From the sequence record MZ501107: a stretch of 43,627 bases of DNA; one strand, written 5' to 3'. Positions 5,007 through 42,354 of the stretch are shown here, piece by piece. Each line of letters begins with the position of its first letter. Position 1 is the stretch's first letter. The DNA comes from Escherichia phage TheodorHerzl. The notes under the pieces were generated by a model. It was not told where the DNA came from. It saw only the letters and a list, made by a program, of their open reading frames with translations, and did no database searches. Position numbers and translations under genes: made by a program.

Positions 5007-5519
5007 CTACAAACGCATCGGCATGATAACAAGGAAGGCACCGCCTTTGAACAGCACACGTGTCGCCTTGTCTACTCCCTGAAATTCCAGTTTTAAGCTA
5101 TCAAACTTACGGTCGAACAATTTAGCAATTTTGCAGGCGTCTGACAGGTATGCCCCAGCAAACCCGATAGCCTCCACTTTAGCGCTGTCGAAAGACGTAA
5201 ATCTACTCCAGTCTGGGAATCGGCCGTCTACGATCTCTATGGGTATGGTACAGATTAATACGTCTTTACTTTCAAAGAACGCAGCGGAGGTGCCGTCTAT
5301 GTTGCAGTATTCGAATTTAGTAGGTAAGCGGCCTTTAATTGCTACTATTTTACTTTCACCTTCGGGAACAACCGCGGACCCGCAGAACAAGCGATGACCG
5401 TTGGTGGCCACAATGAATCCTTTCTCGTCGAAAAATACACCATTTAGGTAGTATCGCACGTCATTAGTTGCGGCGCACATCGTAGCGGCTTTAAGTTCGG
5501 CATAGTTAACTTTAATCAT
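5007..5519 (-). CDS. truncated beta sliding clamp (DnaN domain II-III) homologue
   Basis: 171 aa from the ATG preceded by RBS AGGAA. DVRYYLNGVFF, ATNGHRL, IVDGRFPDW and C-terminal LVIMPMRL match E. coli DnaN DVRYYLNGMLF, ATDGHRL, LVDGRFPDY and VVMPMRL as recalled from memory. Domain I is absent. Confidence 0.8.
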   Translation of the reverse strand: MIKVNYAELKAATMCAATNDVRYYLNGVFFDEKGFIVATNGHRLFCGSAVVPEGESKIVAIKGRLPTKFEYCNIDGTSAAFFESKDVLICTIPIEIVDGRFPDWSRFTSFDSAKVEAIGFAGAYLSDACKIAKLFDRKFDSLKLEFQGVDKATRVLFKGGAFLVIMPMRL

Positions 5520-5540
5520 TGTCATTTCCTCGTTGTTGGT

Positions 5541-5580
5541 GTGCAACCAATATAGTGCAACCAATACGCGGATTGCAAGC
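5541..5580 (-). promoter_or_regulatory. sigma70-like promoter for the clamp-fragment gene, containing two ATTGGTTGCA motif copies
   Basis: Minus-strand reading gives TTGCAA, an 18-nt spacer that includes ATTGGTTGCAC, then TATATT, with a second TTGGTTGCAC just downstream. Coordinates approximate. Confidence 0.5.
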
Positions 5581-6467: not shown

Positions 6468-7568
6468 ATGTCTTTAACAGTGTTCCAGCGTAAACTCGTT
6501 ACCGCGGTTACGCAAATGATCCCCGACAACCTGAACGTTTTCAACGCCGCCGCCAATGGCGCTGTTGTTCTCGGTACTGGTGAAGTGCTGAAGGATGTTG
6601 TAGAAAAAATGTCCGTAGGCTTGATCGCCAACCTCGTTACAGACCGTAACGCCTATGCCCCTGTCGGTACTCCGGCGACCGCAAAAGTGCTGGCGCGTAT
6701 GCTGACCAACTCGGTTAACCTTTCCGCGAAAGTGGGTCCGGTAGCAATCACTAAGGCCATGACTGCTAAGATCGAAACCAACGTTAACAGCGTTGCGGCT
6801 GAGATTGCGGCGCAGGCTACTCAAGCGATTATGCTGCACTACCTGAAAGCGGGTATCGGCGCAAGTAAAGCGGCGATCGAAAGCAACGCAGCGGCAAAAT
6901 ACACCCAACCGGCGCGCGTTGATGGCGTTGGCGGTCGTACCTTCCCGACCCTGGCAGACTTCCCGCTGGCGGCGTCTAAGTTCGGCGATCAGGCGTCTTT
7001 GATTAAGTCCTGGTTTATGGACGGTGTTACCTGGGCAAACTTCATTGCGTACCAGGCGCTCCCTTCCGCTGAACATGTATTCGCAATTGGCGATCTTCAG
7101 GTAATGGGTGATGGCCTGGGCCGTCGTTTCATTATCTCCGATGCCGCTGCCGGTGCTATGGGCACGGGTAACATGCTGGGTCTGGTCCCTGGCGCGGTTG
7201 CCGTTACCACCAACGGCCTCGATATGCTGGCGCAGGAGAAAGGCGGTAACGAGAACATCGAACGCTGGTGGCAGGGTGAGTTCGACTTCAACGTGGCGGT
7301 TAAAGGCTACCGTCTGAAGGCGTCCGCTCGTACTCCGGTAGAAGGTGTGCGCTCGTTCAAGCTGTCTGATATCACCACTAAGGATAACTGGGAGCTTGAC
7401 AATGGCCAGGTAGACAACGCACCGGCAACCGTGCAGGACGTTGGCGCTGTTGGTGATGGCGATACTAAAGGCCGTCGTAAGACCCAGGCCGCACAGGTAG
7501 TGCCGACCCGTCACATCAAGGAAACGGCGGGCGTACTGGTTACGCTGACTGAGACCAAAGCGTCCTGA
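6468..7568 (+). CDS. major capsid protein
   Basis: 366 aa with RBS AAAGGA, directly after the scaffold gene and followed by a strong terminator. The mirror ORF on the minus strand (6474-7577) has an Arg/Cys-rich nonsense-like composition. Confidence 0.8.
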   Translation: MSLTVFQRKLVTAVTQMIPDNLNVFNAAANGAVVLGTGEVLKDVVEKMSVGLIANLVTDRNAYAPVGTPATAKVLARMLTNSVNLSAKVGPVAITKAMTAKIETNVNSVAAEIAAQATQAIMLHYLKAGIGASKAAIESNAAAKYTQPARVDGVGGRTFPTLADFPLAASKFGDQASLIKSWFMDGVTWANFIAYQALPSAEHVFAIGDLQVMGDGLGRRFIISDAAAGAMGTGNMLGLVPGAVAVTTNGLDMLAQEKGGNENIERWWQGEFDFNVAVKGYRLKASARTPVEGVRSFKLSDITTKDNWELDNGQVDNAPATVQDVGAVGDGDTKGRRKTQAAQVVPTRHIKETAGVLVTLTETKAS

Positions 7569-9183: not shown

Positions 9184-9605
9184 TGAGCAATACTCTAATC
9201 CGCAAGGCGCTTAACCGCGTGGTAGAAGATTTATCGGTAAGCCTGAGCACCAGCCAGCGACCGATCCTTGTTAACTGGGAGAACGTGCAAGGGGACCACG
9301 CAAACGGCAGCGGTGTCTACCTGGAACCATATCTGCTTCCGGCCCCTACCCAGTTTGTGGGCTTCCAGCAGAAGGGCCGGATCTATGCAGGCGTGTATCA
9401 GATTGCCGTGGTATTTCCTGCGGGCACTGGCACACAGTATGCGAGCGAACTGGCGGACGCCATCGCGACGTCTGACAAGTGGCAGGCCGTAAGGCTTACC
9501 GGCGCTGCGTTCCAGCTTCAAGACGCGCCATACACCAGTTCGGTGATTGAGGATGTTGATCGCGCCCGCATCGTGGTTACAGTACCCTACACCTGTTGCG
9601 CCTGA
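9183..9605 (+). CDS. tail terminator-like protein (putative)
   Basis: 140 aa with ATG overlapping the upstream stop; lies immediately upstream of the major tail protein. Confidence 0.45.
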   Translation: MSNTLIRKALNRVVEDLSVSLSTSQRPILVNWENVQGDHANGSGVYLEPYLLPAPTQFVGFQQKGRIYAGVYQIAVVFPAGTGTQYASELADAIATSDKWQAVRLTGAAFQLQDAPYTSSVIEDVDRARIVVTVPYTCCA

Positions 9606-11258: not shown

Positions 11259-11299
11259 CAAAAGTGCATACGTATTCGGTTTTCGTGCATAAAACAAAC

Positions 11300-11400
11300 T
11301 GGACAAAAAGCGGGACAAACACTAGGCGGGACAAAGCGGGACAGCACCCCGTCCCAGCCAGTGCTGCCGCGGTTTTCAGCCGATCGGGACAGCGGGACAG
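11300..11400. repeat. GGGACA iteron block A
   Basis: Repeated GCGGGACA(A/G) units; about 70 bp is nearly identical to 38636-38705. Confidence 0.8.
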
Positions 11401-11405
11401 CACCC

Positions 11406-11453
11406 CAGTCTTTCAGACTAGACGGGGGTCAACGGCCCCCCTCGTCTGAGACT
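11406..11453 (+). repeat. conserved long imperfect hairpin A (copy of 38757-38803)
   Basis: CAGTCTTTCAGACTAGACGGGGGTCAACGG(C5-6)TCGTCTGAGACT followed by GAATAA. Inverted arms TCAGAC/GTCTGA and GGGGG/CCCCC. This copy appears to carry one extra C relative to copy B, judged from the reading frame of the overlapping ORF in the track. Confidence 0.75.
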
Positions 11454-11522
11454 GAATAAGGTTTGTTTTGAAATCGCTGATACAATATCCATCGGCAACT
11501 GCATAAAAAAGGGGACTGCATA

Positions 11523-21574: not shown

Positions 21575-21654
21575 GTTATCATCTCCTTTATTTGGTTGAG
21601 TTTTAGTATTACACCGCTCGATCAAGAATGCAACCAATTTAAGAGGATTTAGCT

Positions 21655-24592: not shown

Positions 24593-24622
24593 ACTATAAT
24601 GCAACCAACCTATTGGTTGCAA
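24593..24622 (-). promoter_or_regulatory. sigma70-like promoter containing a palindromic ATTGGTTGCA pair
   Basis: Minus strand reads TTGCAA, then the 18-nt spacer CCAATAGGTTGGTTGCAT, then TATAGT. The 8-4-8 palindrome GCAACCAA-nnnn-TTGGTTGC overlaps the 3-prime end of the HAD gene. Coordinates approximate. Confidence 0.55.
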
Positions 24623-26461: not shown

Positions 26462-26508
26462 TGTGTCGTCTCCGGGTATTAAAAAGGGCGTCCAAACCGG
26501 ACACCCTC

Positions 26509-26542
26509 AATATAATGCAACCAATATGATTATGCAACCAAT
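26509..26542 (-). promoter_or_regulatory. sigma70-like promoter TTGCAT-N17-TATATT built from two direct ATTGGTTGCAT copies
   Basis: Minus strand reads ATTGGTTGCAT AATCAT ATTGGTTGCAT TATATT. Coordinates approximate. Confidence 0.55.
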
Positions 26543-26866
26543 TTACGCATAAAAGTTCGGGTCGCGTGCAACGTCTACCAGGTAAAGGTTGCTTATGCGG
26601 TTGCCGTAGTGCCCTGGGGTGCGCTGGCGGCACACAACGGCGAAGCCTGGAGGGATTGTATTGCCCGTCGCAATAATCCACGCCACGCGTGCGCCAGACA
26701 GCGTCTTGCCGTTGCATTCGATACGGGTTCCGCCGTCGGCAGTGTTAAGGTTGCCAATCTTGCAGCCGGTGGACTTCAGACGGATGACCCCGGTTTTGCT
26801 GTCGTAGGTGAATAGCTGGTTAGTCATTGCGACCGAAAAGTCGATTGCTTCGAATGAAGTATTCAT
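26543..26866 (-). CDS. HNH-type endonuclease-like protein (putative)
   Basis: 107 aa. The pattern NGKTLSGARVAWIIATGNTIP...NLYLV resembles HNH_3-type homing-endonuclease domains. Assignment from memory. Confidence 0.45.
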   Translation of the reverse strand: MNTSFEAIDFSVAMTNQLFTYDSKTGVIRLKSTGCKIGNLNTADGGTRIECNGKTLSGARVAWIIATGNTIPPGFAVVCRQRTPGHYGNRISNLYLVDVARDPNFYA

Positions 26867-27441
26867 TTTAAATTTTCCTCGTTAACCGCTATCGCGAAGC
26901 CGTTGCCGGTCCATAAGCAGGTCAGCTTCGGATATGAATCGCGGGCGTTGATGTATTCCGGGAAGAGCGGGTGTACGTCATCCTCCGGCAGATATCCCCC
27001 ATACTCCCACGGGTCGAACGAGTGATCCGGCTTGCGCCACTGGGAGGAAAGCACACTGCGCGGATTCTCAATCATATATGGCACTTCGAAGAAGTCACCC
27101 AGGTAAGCGGCGATCTTCGCGGTGCGCACCGCCTTAAGCTGAAAGGCCGGGTCTTTAGCCCGCTTGCGCGGGAAAGCTGGCGCACCGCTCACTGCCAGAT
27201 CCGTACACGGAGGGAATGCATAGATGATATCCGGCGTACCGAAATCGCCGTTCATCGCGCGGTCCACAAAGTCCATATCGATAAACACATTGCGATACCG
27301 GATTCCGCGACCATAAATACGGTAGTCAAGGTAAGACCCGTGATCGGCTTCGGAGTAGTTGAAGCAATAACACTTATGCCCCATCTCGGCAGCACGCTCA
27401 ATCATCAAGCCGCTGCCGTCAAACAATGACCAGATTATCAT
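26863..27441 (-). CDS. short DNA (cytosine-5)-methyltransferase-like protein
   Basis: 192 aa. SLFDGSG (motif I-like), FPPCTDLAVSG (PC motif IV-like) and YMIENPRS (ENV motif VI-like). Too short to hold a canonical target-recognition domain. Confidence 0.45.
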   Translation of the reverse strand: MIIWSLFDGSGLMIERAAEMGHKCYCFNYSEADHGSYLDYRIYGRGIRYRNVFIDMDFVDRAMNGDFGTPDIIYAFPPCTDLAVSGAPAFPRKRAKDPAFQLKAVRTAKIAAYLGDFFEVPYMIENPRSVLSSQWRKPDHSFDPWEYGGYLPEDDVHPLFPEYINARDSYPKLTCLWTGNGFAIAVNEENLK

Positions 27442-29323: not shown

Positions 29324-29363
29324 TAACCGGCACACTATACCGCTATGCGACCAATTCAGCAAC
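29324..29363 (-). promoter_or_regulatory. sigma70-like promoter TTGCTG-N17-TATAGT with ATTGGTTGC and ATTGGTCGCAT motif copies
   Basis: Minus strand reads ATTGGTTGCTG AATTGGTCGCATAGCGG TATAGT. Coordinates approximate. Confidence 0.45.
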
Positions 29364-29621
29364 CAATAAATCACAGTCGGCGATGTTGTCTATAACGCGA
29401 ACGTCAGCGCCGCGGCGGGCCATCCGCTCATGTTCACGTACCTGGTGCGGCTTCGGTTTTCCTCCGGGGCGCTTCACTTCGACGAACACTATTTTGCCGT
29501 TGATGATGATAATCAGATCGGGCGCACCTGCGCGCCCCTCCCATGCCAGTTTGCGGCAGAATCCGCCCACCTCTTTCACCCGTCGCATCAGGTGACTTTG
29601 AATCTTGCCTTCTGGAGTCAT
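29343..29621 (-). CDS. VRR-NUC domain nuclease
   Basis: 92 aa from the ATG with RBS AGGAAG, overlapping the polymerase stop (TAATG). GAPDLIIIINGKIVFVEVKRPGGKPKPHQVREHERMARRGADVRV is a PD-(D/E)XK VRR-NUC signature. Confidence 0.75.
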   Translation of the reverse strand: MTPEGKIQSHLMRRVKEVGGFCRKLAWEGRAGAPDLIIIINGKIVFVEVKRPGGKPKPHQVREHERMARRGADVRVIDNIADCDLLVAELVA

Positions 29622-32860: not shown

Positions 32861-32950
32861 TTTCCAATTCCTCATTTTCACATGTATCGGGGTTATTGGA
32901 AGCCACCCCGTTCGGCTTGGTTGCCAATTTACTTGGTTGCGCCTGAGCGG

Positions 32951-33193
32951 TCAAGCATTTTCATTAAAAAGATTTCTGGTCACGTAGTTGGTAGCGTTCT
33001 CGATCCAGCTTAACGGCGGGCGGTTGATGTTCTTCTCCACCCAATCGGCGGCAGCTTCGCTATAGCCGTCATCCAACCAGCTGGTCTGATGTCGAATCAT
33101 CCACGCCACCATTAACACGCCTTGCACACAATGCAGGATAAAGCCCAGCGCGCCGAGCAAAAACATCAATAAGATTGCGAATACTTTATTCAT
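32951..33193 (-). CDS. small membrane protein
   Basis: 80 aa with an N-terminal hydrophobic helix FAILLMFLLGALGFILHCVQGVLMVAWMI. Confidence 0.5.
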   Translation of the reverse strand: MNKVFAILLMFLLGALGFILHCVQGVLMVAWMIRHQTSWLDDGYSEAAADWVEKNINRPPLSWIENATNYVTRNLFNENA

Positions 33194-35104: not shown

Positions 35105-35536
35105 TTAGTCTTCCAGTTCGAAATAGGTTTCGACGATTTCTTTTAGCTCTTTGTGGAAGTCTTCGACGTCGTCATCTTCCAGCTTGGCGATTGATTTGAT
35201 CTCGAACGATTCCAGCAGGTCGTCGAATTCGTCGTTCGCGTCGTCGTCGTCACCACCGGCAATAATCGCGGCATACTGTTTGATCTCGTCGCGCATCTCT
35301 GCCAGCGGATCGGCATCTTTCTTACCTTTGCCCTTCGCCGGTGCTTTTTTAGCTTTAGCCGGTTTTTCGTCTTCGGCGTCATCTTCGGCGTCATCTTCGA
35401 CAACTTCTTTTTTGGCCTTAGACGGCTTCTTGTCTTCCTGTTTACCAACGGCAGCGCCAACGGTTTCATAATGCTTTGCAATGGTTTCCAGTGCTACTAC
35501 GCCGCGAGTGATCAGGTTTACGATTTGCTCAAACAT
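35105..35536 (-). CDS. highly acidic protein with central Lys/Ala-rich segment; first gene of the leftward early operon
   Basis: 143 aa with RBS GGAGA. Rich in Asp/Glu (DDAEDDAEDE, GGDDDDANDEFDD, LEDDDVEDF), with a central KPAKAKKAPAKGKGKK segment. Confidence 0.6.
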   Translation of the reverse strand: MFEQIVNLITRGVVALETIAKHYETVGAAVGKQEDKKPSKAKKEVVEDDAEDDAEDEKPAKAKKAPAKGKGKKDADPLAEMRDEIKQYAAIIAGGDDDDANDEFDDLLESFEIKSIAKLEDDDVEDFHKELKEIVETYFELED

Positions 35537-35772
35537 GGTATATCTCCGATTGGTTAAGTTTAGGTGTCGGCAGTTAACTTCGTCGGTGGCCTTAACATAT
35601 TGCCAGGTTACGCGTTCTCCCGTTCGGGTAGTGGACCTGGTTATATAATCACGGTTGGGAATCCTGACACTTCGATCCGGCCCCTGCGTTGCCCCTCTCC
35701 AGTTTGCGTCCTGTATCCTGTCGACGGAGTGAATAATAGATTGGTTGCAGGATGGGTGTCAACAACTAATTT

Positions 35773-35807
35773 CAAAAAAAAGCGCCGAGGCAAAATGCGA
35801 CGGCGCT
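35773..35807 (-). terminator. orphan intrinsic terminator on the minus strand inside the divergent control region
   Basis: Minus strand AGCGCCG-TCGCATTTTGCCT-CGGCGCT followed by eight T. No annotated minus-strand gene lies upstream except a 36-codon ORF. Confidence 0.6.
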
Positions 35808-35916
35808 AACCAATGAGAGACAATGAGACGAGAATTATTATTACACGCGTGCGCGCCCGTTTCAATATCCAAAGGATTGGACACCTTGCGGTTTTAGGTG
35901 TAGTTTCGTTGGTCAT
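35806..35916 (-). other. candidate small RNA or 36-codon micro-ORF ending at the orphan terminator
   Basis: ORF MTNETTPKTARCPILWILKRARTRVIIILVSLSLIG with no clear Shine-Dalgarno; it ends at the terminator hairpin. Confidence 0.25.
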
Positions 35917-35937
35917 TAACCAACTGAGGGCAGAGCA

Positions 35938-36267
35938 ATGAATGTAAACGACGCAATCGAAATGTTAACGAAGACTGTTAGCAGTGAAACAAGCCGGTCA
36001 TGGGCTTATACCGATGCCGTTGGGGCGGTATTATTTGAGGTCGAGCGCCTGCGCAGTGTCGAGAAAGAATTACGCGCCAGGCTGGGATTGCTCAACGGCA
36101 CGGCAGCGAGCAAGCTACAAAAACACAATGAAGAAATGGAAGAATACAAAAAGCAGGTTATCCGTTTGCGCGCCGAGGGTAAATCGTGGGCGATGATTGC
36201 CGAGTTGACCGGGATTAATCAGAGCACAGTGCGCTCCTGGGTACGCAATAATAAAACTTCTAAGTAA
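35938..36267 (+). CDS. HTH DNA-binding protein (putative transcriptional regulator)
   Basis: 109 aa with RBS GAGGG. C-terminal helix-turn-helix KSWAMIAELTGINQSTVRSWVRNN. First gene of the rightward operon; a near-palindrome TTGGTCATTAACCAA overlaps its RBS region. Confidence 0.65.
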   Translation: MNVNDAIEMLTKTVSSETSRSWAYTDAVGAVLFEVERLRSVEKELRARLGLLNGTAASKLQKHNEEMEEYKKQVIRLRAEGKSWAMIAELTGINQSTVRSWVRNNKTSK

Positions 36268-38542: not shown

Positions 38543-38588
38543 ATTTTGCGCGCATTGGTTGCCATTTTGAGTGTTTTTATCTGGTCGT

Positions 38589-38616
38589 ATTGGTTGCCGT
38601 GTAGTGTAAGTATAAT
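38589..38616 (+). promoter_or_regulatory. ATTGGTTGCC motif copies followed by a TATAAT -10 box
   Basis: Motif copies at 38554-38563 and 38589-38598; TATAAT at 38611-38616 (anchored to the track ORF that starts at 38546). Confidence 0.4.
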
Positions 38617-38635
38617 GAATAGTTATGCAATAAAA

Positions 38636-38756
38636 CTGCATAAACCAAACGGGACAAAAAGCGGGACAAACACTAGGCGGGACAAAGCGGGACAGCACCC
38701 CCGTCCCGCCCCGGATGACGCGGCCTGGAGAGGAGCGGGACAGCGGGACAGCACCC
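38636..38756. repeat. GGGACA iteron block B (homologous to 11287-11400)
   Basis: GGGACA at 38651, 38663, 38679, 38689, 38738 and 38745. The block TGCATAAACCAAACGGGACAAAAAGCGGGACAAACACTAGGCGGGACAAAGCGGGACAGCACCCCCGTCCC is nearly identical to region A. Confidence 0.8.
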
Positions 38757-38803
38757 CAGTCTTTCAGACTAGACGGGGGTCAACGGCCCCCTCGTCTGAG
38801 ACT
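38757..38803 (+). repeat. conserved long imperfect hairpin B (copy of 11406-11453)
   Basis: CAGTCTTTCAGACTAGACGGGGGTCAACGGCCCCCTCGTCTGAGACT followed by GAATAA. Confidence 0.8.
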
Positions 38804-38958
38804 GAATAAAATCCGAGGATTGCAAATTACACGGCAGCATGTTGCGAAGTGCGGTCGCGGATGAACTAGGCAACCAATGCGAGTTGTATTATGCTGAGTG
38901 AAAAATGTGGTTTGCAGTCACAGCAGATAGCGATCGACTTTTTCATGCGCGTGATTAA

Positions 38959-38993
38959 TATTGGTTGCATTCACCCCGGCACCTTGTTATATT
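38959..38993 (+). promoter_or_regulatory. sigma70-like promoter TTGCAT-N17-TATATT with flanking ATTGGTTGCA copies
   Basis: ATTGGTTGCAT at 38959-38969; TATATT at 38988-38993, followed immediately by TGGTTGCAC. Lies about 30 nt upstream of the 39021 gene. Confidence 0.55.
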
Positions 38994-39020
38994 GGTTGCA
39001 CACCAACGGGAGGGCGGAAC

Positions 39021-39532: not shown

Positions 39533-39802
39533 ATGGGCCGTAGACGAGCAAAACAGCTTTCGTGGCATATTCCCCTGCATTGCATACGAATATGGGCTGA
39601 GAATGCGAATGCTGGGGATTCTGTATTCTGGTGTTATCGCGATGACGTTAAGCCGTTGACGCAGACTCGCTACCTGCACCAGTTCGCAGCACAACACGAT
39701 TTCAGGGTGCGGACTTCCTTGCAACCAATGGGGATCCGTATTACATTACGCCGGAAGCCCGCCGTTGAGCGGGTAGGCAAACACTGGAGACTGAGCAAAT
39801 GA
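39533..39802 (+). CDS. hypothetical protein (basic)
   Basis: 89 aa with RBS AAGGGG. Confidence 0.5.
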   Translation: MGRRRAKQLSWHIPLHCIRIWAENANAGDSVFWCYRDDVKPLTQTRYLHQFAAQHDFRVRTSLQPMGIRITLRRKPAVERVGKHWRLSK

Positions 39803-42078: not shown

Positions 42079-42268
42079 TACGAGGTAACACAGTATGTTA
42101 AAAAGCATTCTTGATCATAACGCCGACGCGCTCGCCGCGCTGGCTAAAACCTAAGATCCGGGCGCGCGAGCTATCATCGCGGATACTATCAACCACGCTG
42201 GGGTCTTCGATGCGAAGCTGCCAAGCCCACCCCCGCAGGAAGAGTCTGACCCCGTAGCGTAAACTATC

Positions 42269-42297
42269 AAGCCCGGTTAATTCCGGGCTTTTTATTG
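42269..42297 (+). terminator. intrinsic terminator after the lysis genes
   Basis: AGCCCGG-TTAATT-CCGGGCT followed by TTTTATT. Confidence 0.7.
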
Positions 42298-42354
42298 CCC
42301 GCCTCGATAAGTCCCGTGATATATTGTCCCCGGTCCCATAATCAGGAAGTAATT

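Follow-up and report, generated by a model that had tools for sequence, protein, structure and literature searches.

The predicted promoter P_gp27 raises the question of what a ten-nucleotide word, ATTGGTTGCA, does on top of its core elements. The original prediction had singled out the span of this promoter and had taken the word both as the defining part of a family of sigma70-like promoters and as an operator for a dimeric phage regulator. Two copies in opposite orientation lie within the promoter:

24593..24622, minus strand: P_gp27, TTGCAA-18-TATAGT, the span singled out originally
24612..24621, plus strand: exact copy, inverted relative to P_gp27; its TTGCAA palindrome is the minus-strand -35
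24600..24609, minus strand: copy reading GTTGGTTGCA in the P_gp27 spacer, 1 nt before the -10

We address whether the word is part of the promoter or a protein-binding site laid over it, and which protein could read it. The -35 and -10 elements given here and below were assigned by sequence reading and with a generic sigma70 scanner, and all promoters are predicted ones.

The window, meaning the whole 43.6-kb stretch of DNA that was analysed, is a complete Dhillonvirus genome (an HK578/SO-1/EP23-like siphovirus of E. coli), and the Dhillonvirus phage is lytic according to its description in the literature. The replication half is about 94% identical to vb_EcoS_bov11C2, SO-1, welsh and others, and the structural half has 91-94% identity to HK578, SO-1 and EP23. 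We obtained the gene map of the window by projecting the SO-1 coding sequences onto it. Packaging, head and tail genes run rightward from 1 to approximately 23.4 kb, and this structural block is broken by two leftward morons, gp07 (clamp-like) and gp24/gp23 (lipoprotein and DUF6453). Sigma70-like promoters are not in excess in the structural region, in which several internal terminators are present. The replication operon, in leftward orientation, extends between 35.7 and 23.4 kb. A divergent control region occupies positions 35717-35937, and the rightward operon comprises, in this order, gp47 (109 aa), the primase-helicase gene gp48, a non-coding stretch of 478 bp that we call region B (38543-39020), small genes, lysis genes and gp58. 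An Rfam search of the whole window gave no match. Furthermore, no phage-encoded single-subunit RNA polymerase was found in the window, where the only open reading frames of at least 750 aa are those of the tape measure, tail protein J, DNA polymerase and primase-helicase. A T7-like phage-polymerase promoter was rejected because the genome is without a single-subunit RNA polymerase gene.

On both strands of the window ATTGGTTGCA has ten exact matches, compared to 0.09 expected from dinucleotide shuffles (n=100; maximum 1), and 16 matches with up to one mismatch, compared to 3.3 expected (shuffle maximum 8). This agrees with the approximately 15 occurrences and the chance expectation well under one that had been claimed, and all sites listed originally lie within 1-2 nt of those found here. 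The original list was incomplete by one exact copy:

39720..39729, minus strand: exact copy in gp51, antisense, with no promoter-like partner

This copy, also found in SO-1 and TH13, is the only one of the 16 deep in coding sequence. Eleven of the 16 are intergenic and four lie at gene edges, although intergenic DNA makes up only 6.6% of the genome (binomial P 1e-11 for at least 12 of 16 copies). The nearly exclusive intergenic or promoter placement that had been proposed therefore stands, with 15 of the 16 copies in such places, and so does the enrichment over coding sequence that it implied. Two more copies with two mismatches each (32916 and 32932), both of which are kept as such in relatives, bring the total to 18. 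ATTGGTTGCA is moreover the commonest 10-mer of the window, SO-1, LM40P1 and CHD5UKE2, and joint first in TH13.

The copies are kept in related phages while their surroundings diverge, which is what the comparison with the promoters of relatives, suggested with the original prediction, brought out. LM40P1 is a 78%-identical relative and the most diverged among the complete relatives compared. In its alignment to the window only 2 of 159 aligned motif columns differ (98.7% identity), against 77.3% identity for the flanks of 25 nt on either side, 78.9% for other intergenic DNA and 81.8% for coding sequence. The 5' half of the word, ATTGG, is conserved as strongly as TTGCA in this alignment. When homologous promoters are aligned, the copies are fixed and the bases between them vary freely; for instance, the spacer between the two P_orf80 copies reads taatcat, taattag, ttgcgag or ttctaag across relatives. 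The contigs L127, L129 and L131 share only about 72% identity with the window, and no 8-mer is more frequent in them than TTGGTTGC (13, 13 and 9 copies); these copies lie at positions corresponding to those in the window as judged from flanking sequence and gene order. In a profile of 69 sites the core TTGGTTGC is invariant, an invariance imposed by the way the sites were collected; an A is found at -1 in about 70% and at +9 in about 50% of the sites, and there is no information further out. Judged from these counts and alignments, ATTGGTTGCA with its core TTGGTTGC is a real, strongly selected and lineage-specific cis-regulatory word.

The word is found on or beside most of the early and accessory-gene promoters identified in the genome. 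Besides P_gp27 and gp51, the loci are:

5549..5578, minus strand: P_gp07, TTGCAA-18-TATATT, predicted to drive the clamp-like moron gp07 (5525..5007)
5556..5565, minus strand: exact copy in the P_gp07 spacer, stopping 1 nt short of the -10
5542..5551, minus strand: exact copy over the 3' half of the P_gp07 -10 and the +1, TATATTGGTTGCACACCAAC
21605..21633, minus strand: P_gp24, TTGCAT-17-AATACT with TG upstream, predicted to drive the moron for the lipoprotein and the DUF6453 membrane protein
21629..21638, minus strand: exact copy, the -35 of P_gp24
26509..26537, minus strand: P_orf80, TTGCAT-17-TATATT
26533..26542, minus strand: exact copy, the -35 of P_orf80
26516..26525, minus strand: exact copy in the P_orf80 spacer, 1 nt before the -10
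26508-26484: terminator hairpin after P_orf80, followed by U5; its 5' arm covers the predicted start site
29334..29362, minus strand: P_gp35, TTGCTG-17-TATAGT
29358..29367, minus strand: copy ATTGGTTGCT (1 mismatch), the -35 of P_gp35, within the 3' end of gp36
29346..29355, minus strand: copy ATTGGTCGCA (1 mismatch) in the P_gp35 spacer
32926..32954, minus strand: P_gp41, TTGACC-17-TAAATT, predicted to drive the gene of the ssDNA-binding protein
32932..32941, plus strand: degenerate inverted copy CTTGGTTGCG (2 mismatches), filling the P_gp41 spacer up to the -10
32916..32925, plus strand: degenerate inverted copy CTTGGTTGCC (2 mismatches), directly downstream of the P_gp41 -10
35733..35762, minus strand: P_L, predicted main leftward early promoter, TTGACA-18-TATTAT
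35740..35749, plus strand: exact inverted copy in the P_L spacer, 1 nt from the -10
35877..35906, plus strand: P_R, TTGGAC-18-TAGTTT, predicted promoter of gp47 and the primase
35909..35923, no strand assigned: TTGGT-N5-ACCAA just downstream of P_R, putative autoregulatory site
38554..38563, plus strand: copy ATTGGTTGCC following directly on the primase stop codon; forms the left arm of a 13-nt inverted repeat
38589..38598, plus strand: copy ATTGGTTGCC in no conserved promoter register
38869..38878, minus strand: copy ATTGGTTGCC, right arm of the inverted repeat
38965..38993, plus strand: P_gp49, TTGCAT-17-TATATT
38960..38969, plus strand: exact copy, the -35 of P_gp49
38991..39000, plus strand: exact copy over the 3' half of the P_gp49 -10 and the +1, in the same 20-mer TATATTGGTTGCACACCAAC as at P_gp07

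From these elements transcription is predicted to start near 5542, 21598, 24586, 26502, 29327, 32919 and 35726 on the minus strand and near 35913 and 39000 on the plus strand. Three registers relative to the promoters can be distinguished. In register I the TTGCAn of the word is the -35 and lies 17-18 nt from the -10 (P_gp24, P_orf80, P_gp35 and P_gp49, and P_gp27 by way of the TTGCAA of its inverted copy). In register II a copy in the spacer ends 1 nt before the -10, giving ATTGGTTGCA-n-TATAnT, at P_gp07, P_gp27 and P_orf80; at P_gp35 the corresponding copy ends 6 nt before the -10. In register III a copy lies over the start site and the final three bases of the -10, at P_gp07 and P_gp49 within the 20-mer TATATTGGTTGCACACCAAC. 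Inverted copies are found in the spacers of P_L and P_gp41 and just past the -10 of P_gp41. The pairs are spaced by 12, 14, 16, 17, 31 or 35 bp, of which registers I, II and III account for 17, 14 and 31 bp. A blind count around 69 core copies of four diverged genomes recovers same-strand -10-like hexamers in peaks at +19 (14), +2 (10) and -12/-13 (18 and 11), with a background of about 2 per offset; the -12/-13 peak is partly inflated, as the motif's own ATT is half a hexamer. A further cluster of -10-like hexamers lies on the opposite strand of these copies. The proposed tie to sigma70-type promoters is thus a strong one, and a second copy, as described originally, usually lies in the spacer or over the -10 and +1.

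One reading of these registers is that of a pure promoter element, in which ATTGGTTGCA is the extended -35 of this lineage (ATTGG plus TTGCAn), used by the sigma70 holoenzyme alone with no dedicated binder, and in which the extra copies belong to overlapping, tandem or divergent promoters. It is in line with the five of 18 copies that lie exactly 17-18 nt upstream of good, TATAnT-like -10 hexamers (21629, 24612 for the other strand, 26533, 29358 and 38960), the same places in which the word had been credited with supplying the -35 at least five times, and with the +19 peak, which holds 14 of the 69 sites. Moreover, a rightward promoter TTGCAG-16-TAATTT could take its -35 from the copy at 35740. 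The copies in spacers, over the -10 and +1, in inverted orientation and in region B, however, do not combine a TTGACA-like hexamer, a distance of 16-18 nt and a common orientation with a -10, and a -10 to go with them is missing for the second copies located in a spacer or over a -10. In region B the hexamer is TTGCCn, which makes a poor -35, and a conserved -10 is lacking there; from the inverted copies in P_L and P_gp41 one would expect antisense promoters inside operons. The five bases that precede the -35 are no part of what sigma70 region 4 reads and are nonetheless conserved like TTGCA; that conservation would be confined to the hexamer read by sigma is refuted by the conservation of all ten positions, ATTGG included.

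The comparison of promoters between relatives argues in the same direction. The word changes its orientation at one position between close relatives, with TH13 carrying the copy in the P_gp27 spacer in opposite orientation, and it changes its number, with LM40P1 having gained a second copy in the spacer of P_gp24 (register II). A directional promoter element should not be expected to flip or to change in copy number in this way. Variants can also be retained, since the ATTGGTCGCA copy of P_gp35 is present in the 72%-identical contig L127. Upstream of gp58, a promoter in relatives is overlaid by an inverted pair, while the sequence of the window is unrelated at this place. In diverged relatives P_L carries two overlapping inverted copies. 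Altogether we regard the pure promoter element as unlikely.

The statement that the motif defines the promoters has to be given up, because the best of them (P_L, P_gp41 and P_R) have their own -35, with the word inverted in the spacer or just downstream. At P_gp07, too, the -35 is a TTGCAA outside the word, and the two copies both follow downstream of this hexamer. In the half of the genome that was scanned, P_L scores highest as a sigma70 match (11/12), and P_L and P_gp41, the promoters with the best -35 of their own, carry the word inverted. The -35 of P_R reads TTGACA in SO-1 and TH13. At the site corresponding to TTGGT-N5-ACCAA, the contigs L127, L129 and L131 have a full inverted copy of the motif at approximately +10 of the gp47 promoter, and the TTGGT-N5-ACCAA of the window is putatively a decayed form of this copy.

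Occurrence in several registers and both orientations, always on or beside core promoters, fits an operator, and the sites do overlap core promoter elements while being conserved above their flanks. As far as the alignments tell, the only requirement of such sites is overlap with the polymerase footprint, which is the behaviour of protein-binding sites. Part of the signal may nevertheless be read by sigma70, given that the motif contains a usable -35 (TTGCAn) and that the copy at 21629 stands alone. Of the operator for a dimeric regulator that had been proposed, the operator is thus favoured, and the dimer on a palindrome fares less well: the inverted pair, described at about 24601-24620, is present as the copies at 24600 (minus) and 24612 (plus), as an exception and not as the rule. 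Since a palindrome is seen at a single locus out of about ten and the pairs are variably spaced, a classical dimer bound to a palindromic operator is weakly supported, and an asymmetric site read by single HTH domains appears to fit better.

The candidate binder named originally, the HTH protein encoded from 35938, is favoured by the evidence, through its HTH and its co-occurrence with the motif:

35938..36267, plus strand: gp47, 109 aa, a long helix and a single C-terminal HTH; first gene of the rightward early operon

The HTH of gp47 scores above the Pfam cut-off for HTH_23, HTH_28 and Sigma70_r4_2, with weak ECF-sigma and IS630 matches in NCBIfam, and no Cro/C1-type (HTH_3-like) match above the Pfam cut-off was found in gp47. 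In the other 29 early, accessory and small proteins scanned from the window, Pfam found no DNA-binding domain. The AlphaFold model (mean pLDDT 85) has a short helix, a 59-residue helix (residues 21-79) and a compact HTH. Structural neighbours were obtained for the HTH only and are LuxR/GerE/NarL, recombinase and transposase HTHs (about 1 Å over approximately 35 residues), and the structure search with the whole gp47 chain gave no significant neighbour. The GenBank labels "transposase", "resolvase" and "Gam nuclease inhibitor" of gp47 are unsupported beyond the shared HTH.

The gp47 family comprises two clades, of 109 aa and 142-169 aa, which are about 40% identical overall, with an N-terminus that is either hypervariable or exchanged altogether. 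Little or no variation is seen across both clades at the HTH positions G-x-S-W..I-A..T-G-x-N-x-(S/T)-T-x-R-x-W, and genomes of both clades have the same word in the same places. Recognition residues and motif are both invariant in the diverged variants as well (P0013, P0014, P0022, the CHD5UKE2 type-2 clade, P0029 and P0033). As the recognition residues never vary and the family is found only on Dhillonvirus-type genomes, there is no covariation of gp47 and motif to test. Family members were found on 153 phage records and 13 viral contigs, which are Dhillonvirus isolates or contigs of 42-46 kb of that type; the bacterial genomes searched gave no relative, and the viral collection only contigs of Dhillonvirus size. 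All gp47-carrying genomes examined carry the motif. In a phyletic profile over the shared 20-kb segment, four proteins occur in every motif-bearing genome and in none of the relatives that lack the motif; gp47 belongs to these four, and among them it alone has a DNA-binding domain. The cognate reader of ATTGGTTGCA is therefore most probably gp47, which we treat as a candidate.

Our preferred reading is that ATTGGTTGCA would be the operator of a Dhillonvirus-specific regulator, most probably gp47, with shut-down of promoters as the net effect; we consider this specific model about equally likely to be right or wrong. Host sigma70 polymerase would start at P_L and P_R, as their near-consensus elements suggest, and gp47 would be made first, from P_R. 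The long helix is a likely oligomerisation element, probably pairing the HTH domains, each of which would read one asymmetric site of 8-10 bp. These sites would be placed on the -35, against the -10 in the spacer, or over the -10 and +1, usually two per promoter and in either orientation, and a loosely tethered pair of HTH domains would tolerate the variable spacing and orientation. Since the sites are laid over core promoter elements, a bound protein would compete with RNA polymerase. With the accumulation of gp47 the early and accessory promoters would be shut down in a negative feedback, the likely net effect, and the targets would be the divergent P_L and P_R, the latter being the promoter of gp47 itself, as well as the promoters inside the leftward replication operon, those of the two morons, and P_gp49. 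We infer gp47 as the binder, the firing of the promoters and the sign of the regulation from the sequence. One locus is awkward for a simple early shut-off: P_gp49 probably heads a long rightward unit into the lysis and structural (late) genes, and the motif at a promoter that probably feeds late genes is not explained by it, which keeps a model of activation or polymerase appropriation alive.

In such a model of positive control or sigma appropriation, gp47 on a -35-register copy would recruit or re-target host RNA polymerase to middle promoters with weak -35s and would block strong early ones, an early-to-middle switch working like T4 MotA or phi29 p4. This would explain the motif at P_gp49, at the head of the long rightward unit, and it matches the finding that the -35-register promoters have weak -35s (TTGCAT, TTGCTG) and those with an inverted copy in the spacer near-consensus ones (TTGACA, TTGACC), as well as the Sigma70_r4_2 match above the Pfam cut-off and the weak ECF-sigma match in gp47. 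On the other hand, most -35-register promoters have a second copy in the spacer or over the -10 and +1 that should block polymerase, no MotA-, AsiA- or sigma-like protein was found among the proteins scanned, and sigma region 4 likeness is common to generic transposase- and LuxR-type HTHs. We find positive control improbable. A more far-reaching proposal, in our estimate quite unlikely, is that gp47 could be a free-standing sigma-region-4-like domain on a coiled-coil stalk, which would replace or compete with sigma70 region 4 and run the whole switch from early to middle and late genes. If this was true, the word in the -35 register would hand polymerase to weak promoters and the word in the spacer or at the start site would lock strong early ones. 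One small protein would then run the switch in a phage without a sigma factor, RNA polymerase or MotA/AsiA, and the hypervariable N-terminus of gp47 would be an evolving interface with polymerase or host defence.

Apart from the promoter-bound copies there are the three ATTGGTTGCC copies in region B (38554, 38589 and 38869), all of which end in ...GCC, as do their counterparts in diverged contigs. No convincing conserved promoter was found at these three copies in the aligned window and relatives; 38589 precedes a TATAAT-like hexamer, which is out of register and unconserved in relatives. A perfect 13-nt inverted repeat, with its right arm at 38869-38881 and its arms 305 nt apart, brackets a block of GCGGGACA iterons and a hairpin. 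Among the genomes inspected at this place, the window, SO-1, LM40P1, TH13, L127, L129, L131, L135 and L136 show a cluster of copies at the primase stop codon. The copies flanking the iteron block suggest a second role, either architectural (looping) or linked to replication and its origin.

The corresponding replication-linked reading holds that the word is bound by an origin-recognition activity, either gp47 as initiator or the primase-helicase gp48, and marks or insulates an origin region after the primase gene; the promoter copies would then couple replication to transcription in the manner of DnaA boxes or iterons. Besides the clustering at the primase stop codon and the motif-containing inverted repeat around the iteron and hairpin block, the gene pair of gp47 and primase resembles an initiator-helicase pair. 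Most copies, nevertheless, lie at a distance from region B in fixed promoter registers, and as repeats of a putative origin the GCGGGACA iterons suggest themselves more readily.

Relatives outside the genus bear on this point as well. The related Guernseyvirinae SP-031 and TS33 share the replication module, with only 2 and 1 core copies, and have a Cro-type HTH at the gene position of gp47; no other genome-wide intergenic word was found in these two genomes. Their primase is 44% identical, yet they are without the motif, which stands against a replication-linked role. Serratia phage Tsm2 has 12 core copies against approximately 1.6 expected and shares the primase but not gp47, and no gp47-like protein is encoded there. 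Four of these copies lie in the 3' coding end of the primase gene, within its last 200 bp, and one follows a perfect promoter. Tsm2 keeps a primase-linked or other reader alive as an alternative, although altogether a replication-linked word strikes us as quite improbable. That the motif is ancestral to the shared replication module was rejected, because SP-031 and TS33 show no excess, despite the 12 copies of Tsm2. Closely spaced pairs of the word were also looked for in viral contigs, where the hits were mostly unrelated tandem repeats without diagnostic value.

A binding site of an E. coli protein exploited by the phage is highly improbable: ATTGG is the Y-box pentamer and Tsm2 has the core without gp47, which are hints only with nothing direct, whereas SP-031 and TS33, with the same or related enterobacterial hosts, are without the word, the conserved unit is TTGGTTGC and not ATTGG, and we know of no E. 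coli regulator with this consensus. Several further candidates were rejected. A sigma54 promoter (GG-N10-GC) does not apply, as only 2 nt separate GG from GC within a copy and the required 8-bp offset occurs in none of the pairs. DnaA-box, NtrC and Y-box readings failed on pair spacing, on the 69-site profile and on the known consensus sequences. A function at the RNA level was rejected since the copies occur in both orientations and mostly upstream of the predicted start sites.

In the Dhillonvirus and HK578 genome literature searched we found no mention of the promoters, of this repeat or of its regulator, and no promoter map, regulator or transcript study for Dhillonvirus. Where GenBank records contain regulatory features, these are limited to terminators and an unrelated repeat. 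The control signal is therefore apparently undescribed so far, though of a familiar kind, and the underlying biology is conventional, with a small HTH protein whose operators cover promoters. Dhillonviruses rank among the coliphages isolated most often, with more than 150 phage-collection records matching this genome; they belong to the BASEL collection and are used in phage-therapy and anti-defence engineering studies. The motif provides a map of approximately ten predicted transcription units with one 109-aa protein as candidate regulator, which would be the first regulatory map of the genus, and it also explains how the inserted accessory genes (morons) may be wired into the phage programme. 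For engineering, the short promoter-plus-operator cassettes would be natural insertion signals.

Comparable arrangements are known from other systems. The T4 middle promoters, which consist of a MotA box and a sigma70 -10, likewise have an asymmetric phage word of about 9-10 bp at or over the -35, at a fixed distance from a host-type -10 and genome-wide. The MotA box has one register and one orientation, whereas at least three registers and both orientations are seen here, and unlike the MotA box the word keeps a -35-like TTGCA. A scan of 30 proteins of the window gave no homologue of MotA or AsiA, and together with the multiple registers this led us to reject MotA-box middle promoters. DnaA boxes or iterons that double as operators, as in RepA-type autoregulation and the P4 alpha iterons, share the asymmetric word of 8-10 bp with a single-HTH reader, and their sites also flank a putative origin beside replication genes and cover promoters. 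They differ in that the word has no sequence likeness to the DnaA box and that the copies here are mostly promoter-locked and not clustered at the putative origin. The p4 protein of phi29 is a small phage protein with sites over early promoters that could repress or activate depending on the position relative to the -35; its sites are inverted repeats at one control region and it works with p6, so that the analogy is functional only, with no homology.

In lambda the operators OR and OL of Cro and CI, at PR, PL and PRM, are 17-bp near-palindromes bound by dimers in two control regions only. Here, the word is asymmetric, measures 8-10 bp and is spread over about ten loci, among them promoters inside operons and those of the morons; both orientations are found, and the spacing of the pairs varies. 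A lambda-type Cro/CI operator was rejected on account of this asymmetry, of the inverted pair at only one of about ten loci and of gp47 not having a Cro/CI-type HTH. The lambdoid system is alike in having a small HTH protein encoded first in the rightward early operon, a divergent control region, sites over the -35, spacer and -10 of early promoters including its own, and an expected early turn-down. By analogy, the lambdoid Cro operators would be the closest in working, and ATTGGTTGCA with gp47 would represent a Cro-like logic in a phage described as lytic.

Upstream of the gp58 homologue, a promoter-like site covered by two inverted copies of the recurring motif was found in four motif-bearing contigs (L127, L129, L135 and L136). 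The corresponding stretch of the window (42224-42354) is unrelated in sequence to this site. The region upstream of gp58 thus illustrates how operators or promoters turn over from one lineage to another. Serratia phage Tsm2 (L004) carries copies of the word TTGGTTGC, at the following locations:

9373-9494, 209-216 and 6714-6721 of Tsm2: copies of TTGGTTGC

Four copies lie within the final 200 bp of the Tsm2 primase gene, one in the divergent control region and one after a perfect TTGACA-17-TATAGT promoter, at a position homologous to P_gp35, a predicted minus-strand promoter of the window. A gp47-like protein is missing from Tsm2, and the TTGGTTGC word is missing from the sister phages of Tsm2.

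In gp47, the proposed reader of the motif, the N-terminal ~45 residues (residues 1-46; window 35938-36075) are hypervariable or swapped for unrelated sequence between phages that are otherwise close, while the C-terminal 60 residues are nearly invariant across the same phages. A variable N-terminus joined to an almost invariant C-terminus suggests that the N-terminus is a fast-evolving partner interface.

Two terminators are found close to predicted promoters. On the minus strand at 26484-26508, a hairpin with a 10-bp stem followed by U5 lies directly after the -10 of P_orf80, which puts the predicted start of transcription within the 5' arm of the hairpin. This terminator would stop transcripts that read through from upstream, whereas RNA initiated at P_orf80 would be unable to fold into it. 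Contig L127 has a stem of different sequence after the corresponding P_orf80 promoter, as read from the site listing rather than from an alignment. The other terminator lies between P_R and P_L, the divergent predicted early promoters, where the minus strand has a promoter-like site, TTGAAA-17-AATAAT with TG (35865-35837). About 25 nt past this site there is a strong terminator, GCGCCG...CGGCGC followed by U8 (z = -3.2), which ends just upstream of P_L. The diverged contigs L127 and L129 retain this hairpin plus T-run, with a different sequence. The minus strand of 35765-35865 may encode a small RNA of ~60 nt, upstream of P_R and transcribed divergently to it; alternatively, this may be a leader or an attenuator.

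Two gene annotations from relatives also deserve comment. The 5' part of SO-1 'gp46' (window 35612-35713) matches unannotated DNA in the unrelated phages sortkaff, JLBYU16, Klebsiella KMI8 and Alux-21 with 80-92% identity, as well as a PHB17 region annotated as methyltransferase. The ATG start of SO-1 'gp46' is ATA in the window; the frame is still open and its first canonical start is at 35536. The minus-strand ORF 26863-27441 (192 aa) is annotated as a cytosine-C5 DNA methyltransferase in relatives. This label looks doubtful, because the ORF has no Pfam or NCBIfam match at E <= 0.01.

Among the most repeated words of the window are 10-mers containing the octamers ACGGCAGC/GCTGCCGT or CGCTGCCG, which occur mainly in coding sequence. 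This observation spans the whole window and also L004, L125, L126 and L134; in Dhillonvirus CHD5UKE2 and Guernseyvirinae relatives these octamers are very frequent, at ~16-30 copies per 40 kb. They may be Chi-like or codon-driven.

A block of ~170 bp is present twice in the window:

11280-11458: region A block, between the tail chaperone and tape-measure genes
38635-38808: region B block, 3' of the primase gene

Each has a region rich in A and T, some seven iterons of GCGGGACA(A/G) that occur in either orientation, and after these a hairpin of 47 nt (z = -4.7). The duplicated block is separate from the ATTGGTTGCA system. It may serve as an origin, or as an array of sites bound by an antitermination factor or a factor for late genes. 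In the record of the related phage SO-1, the two blocks are named repeat regions A and B.
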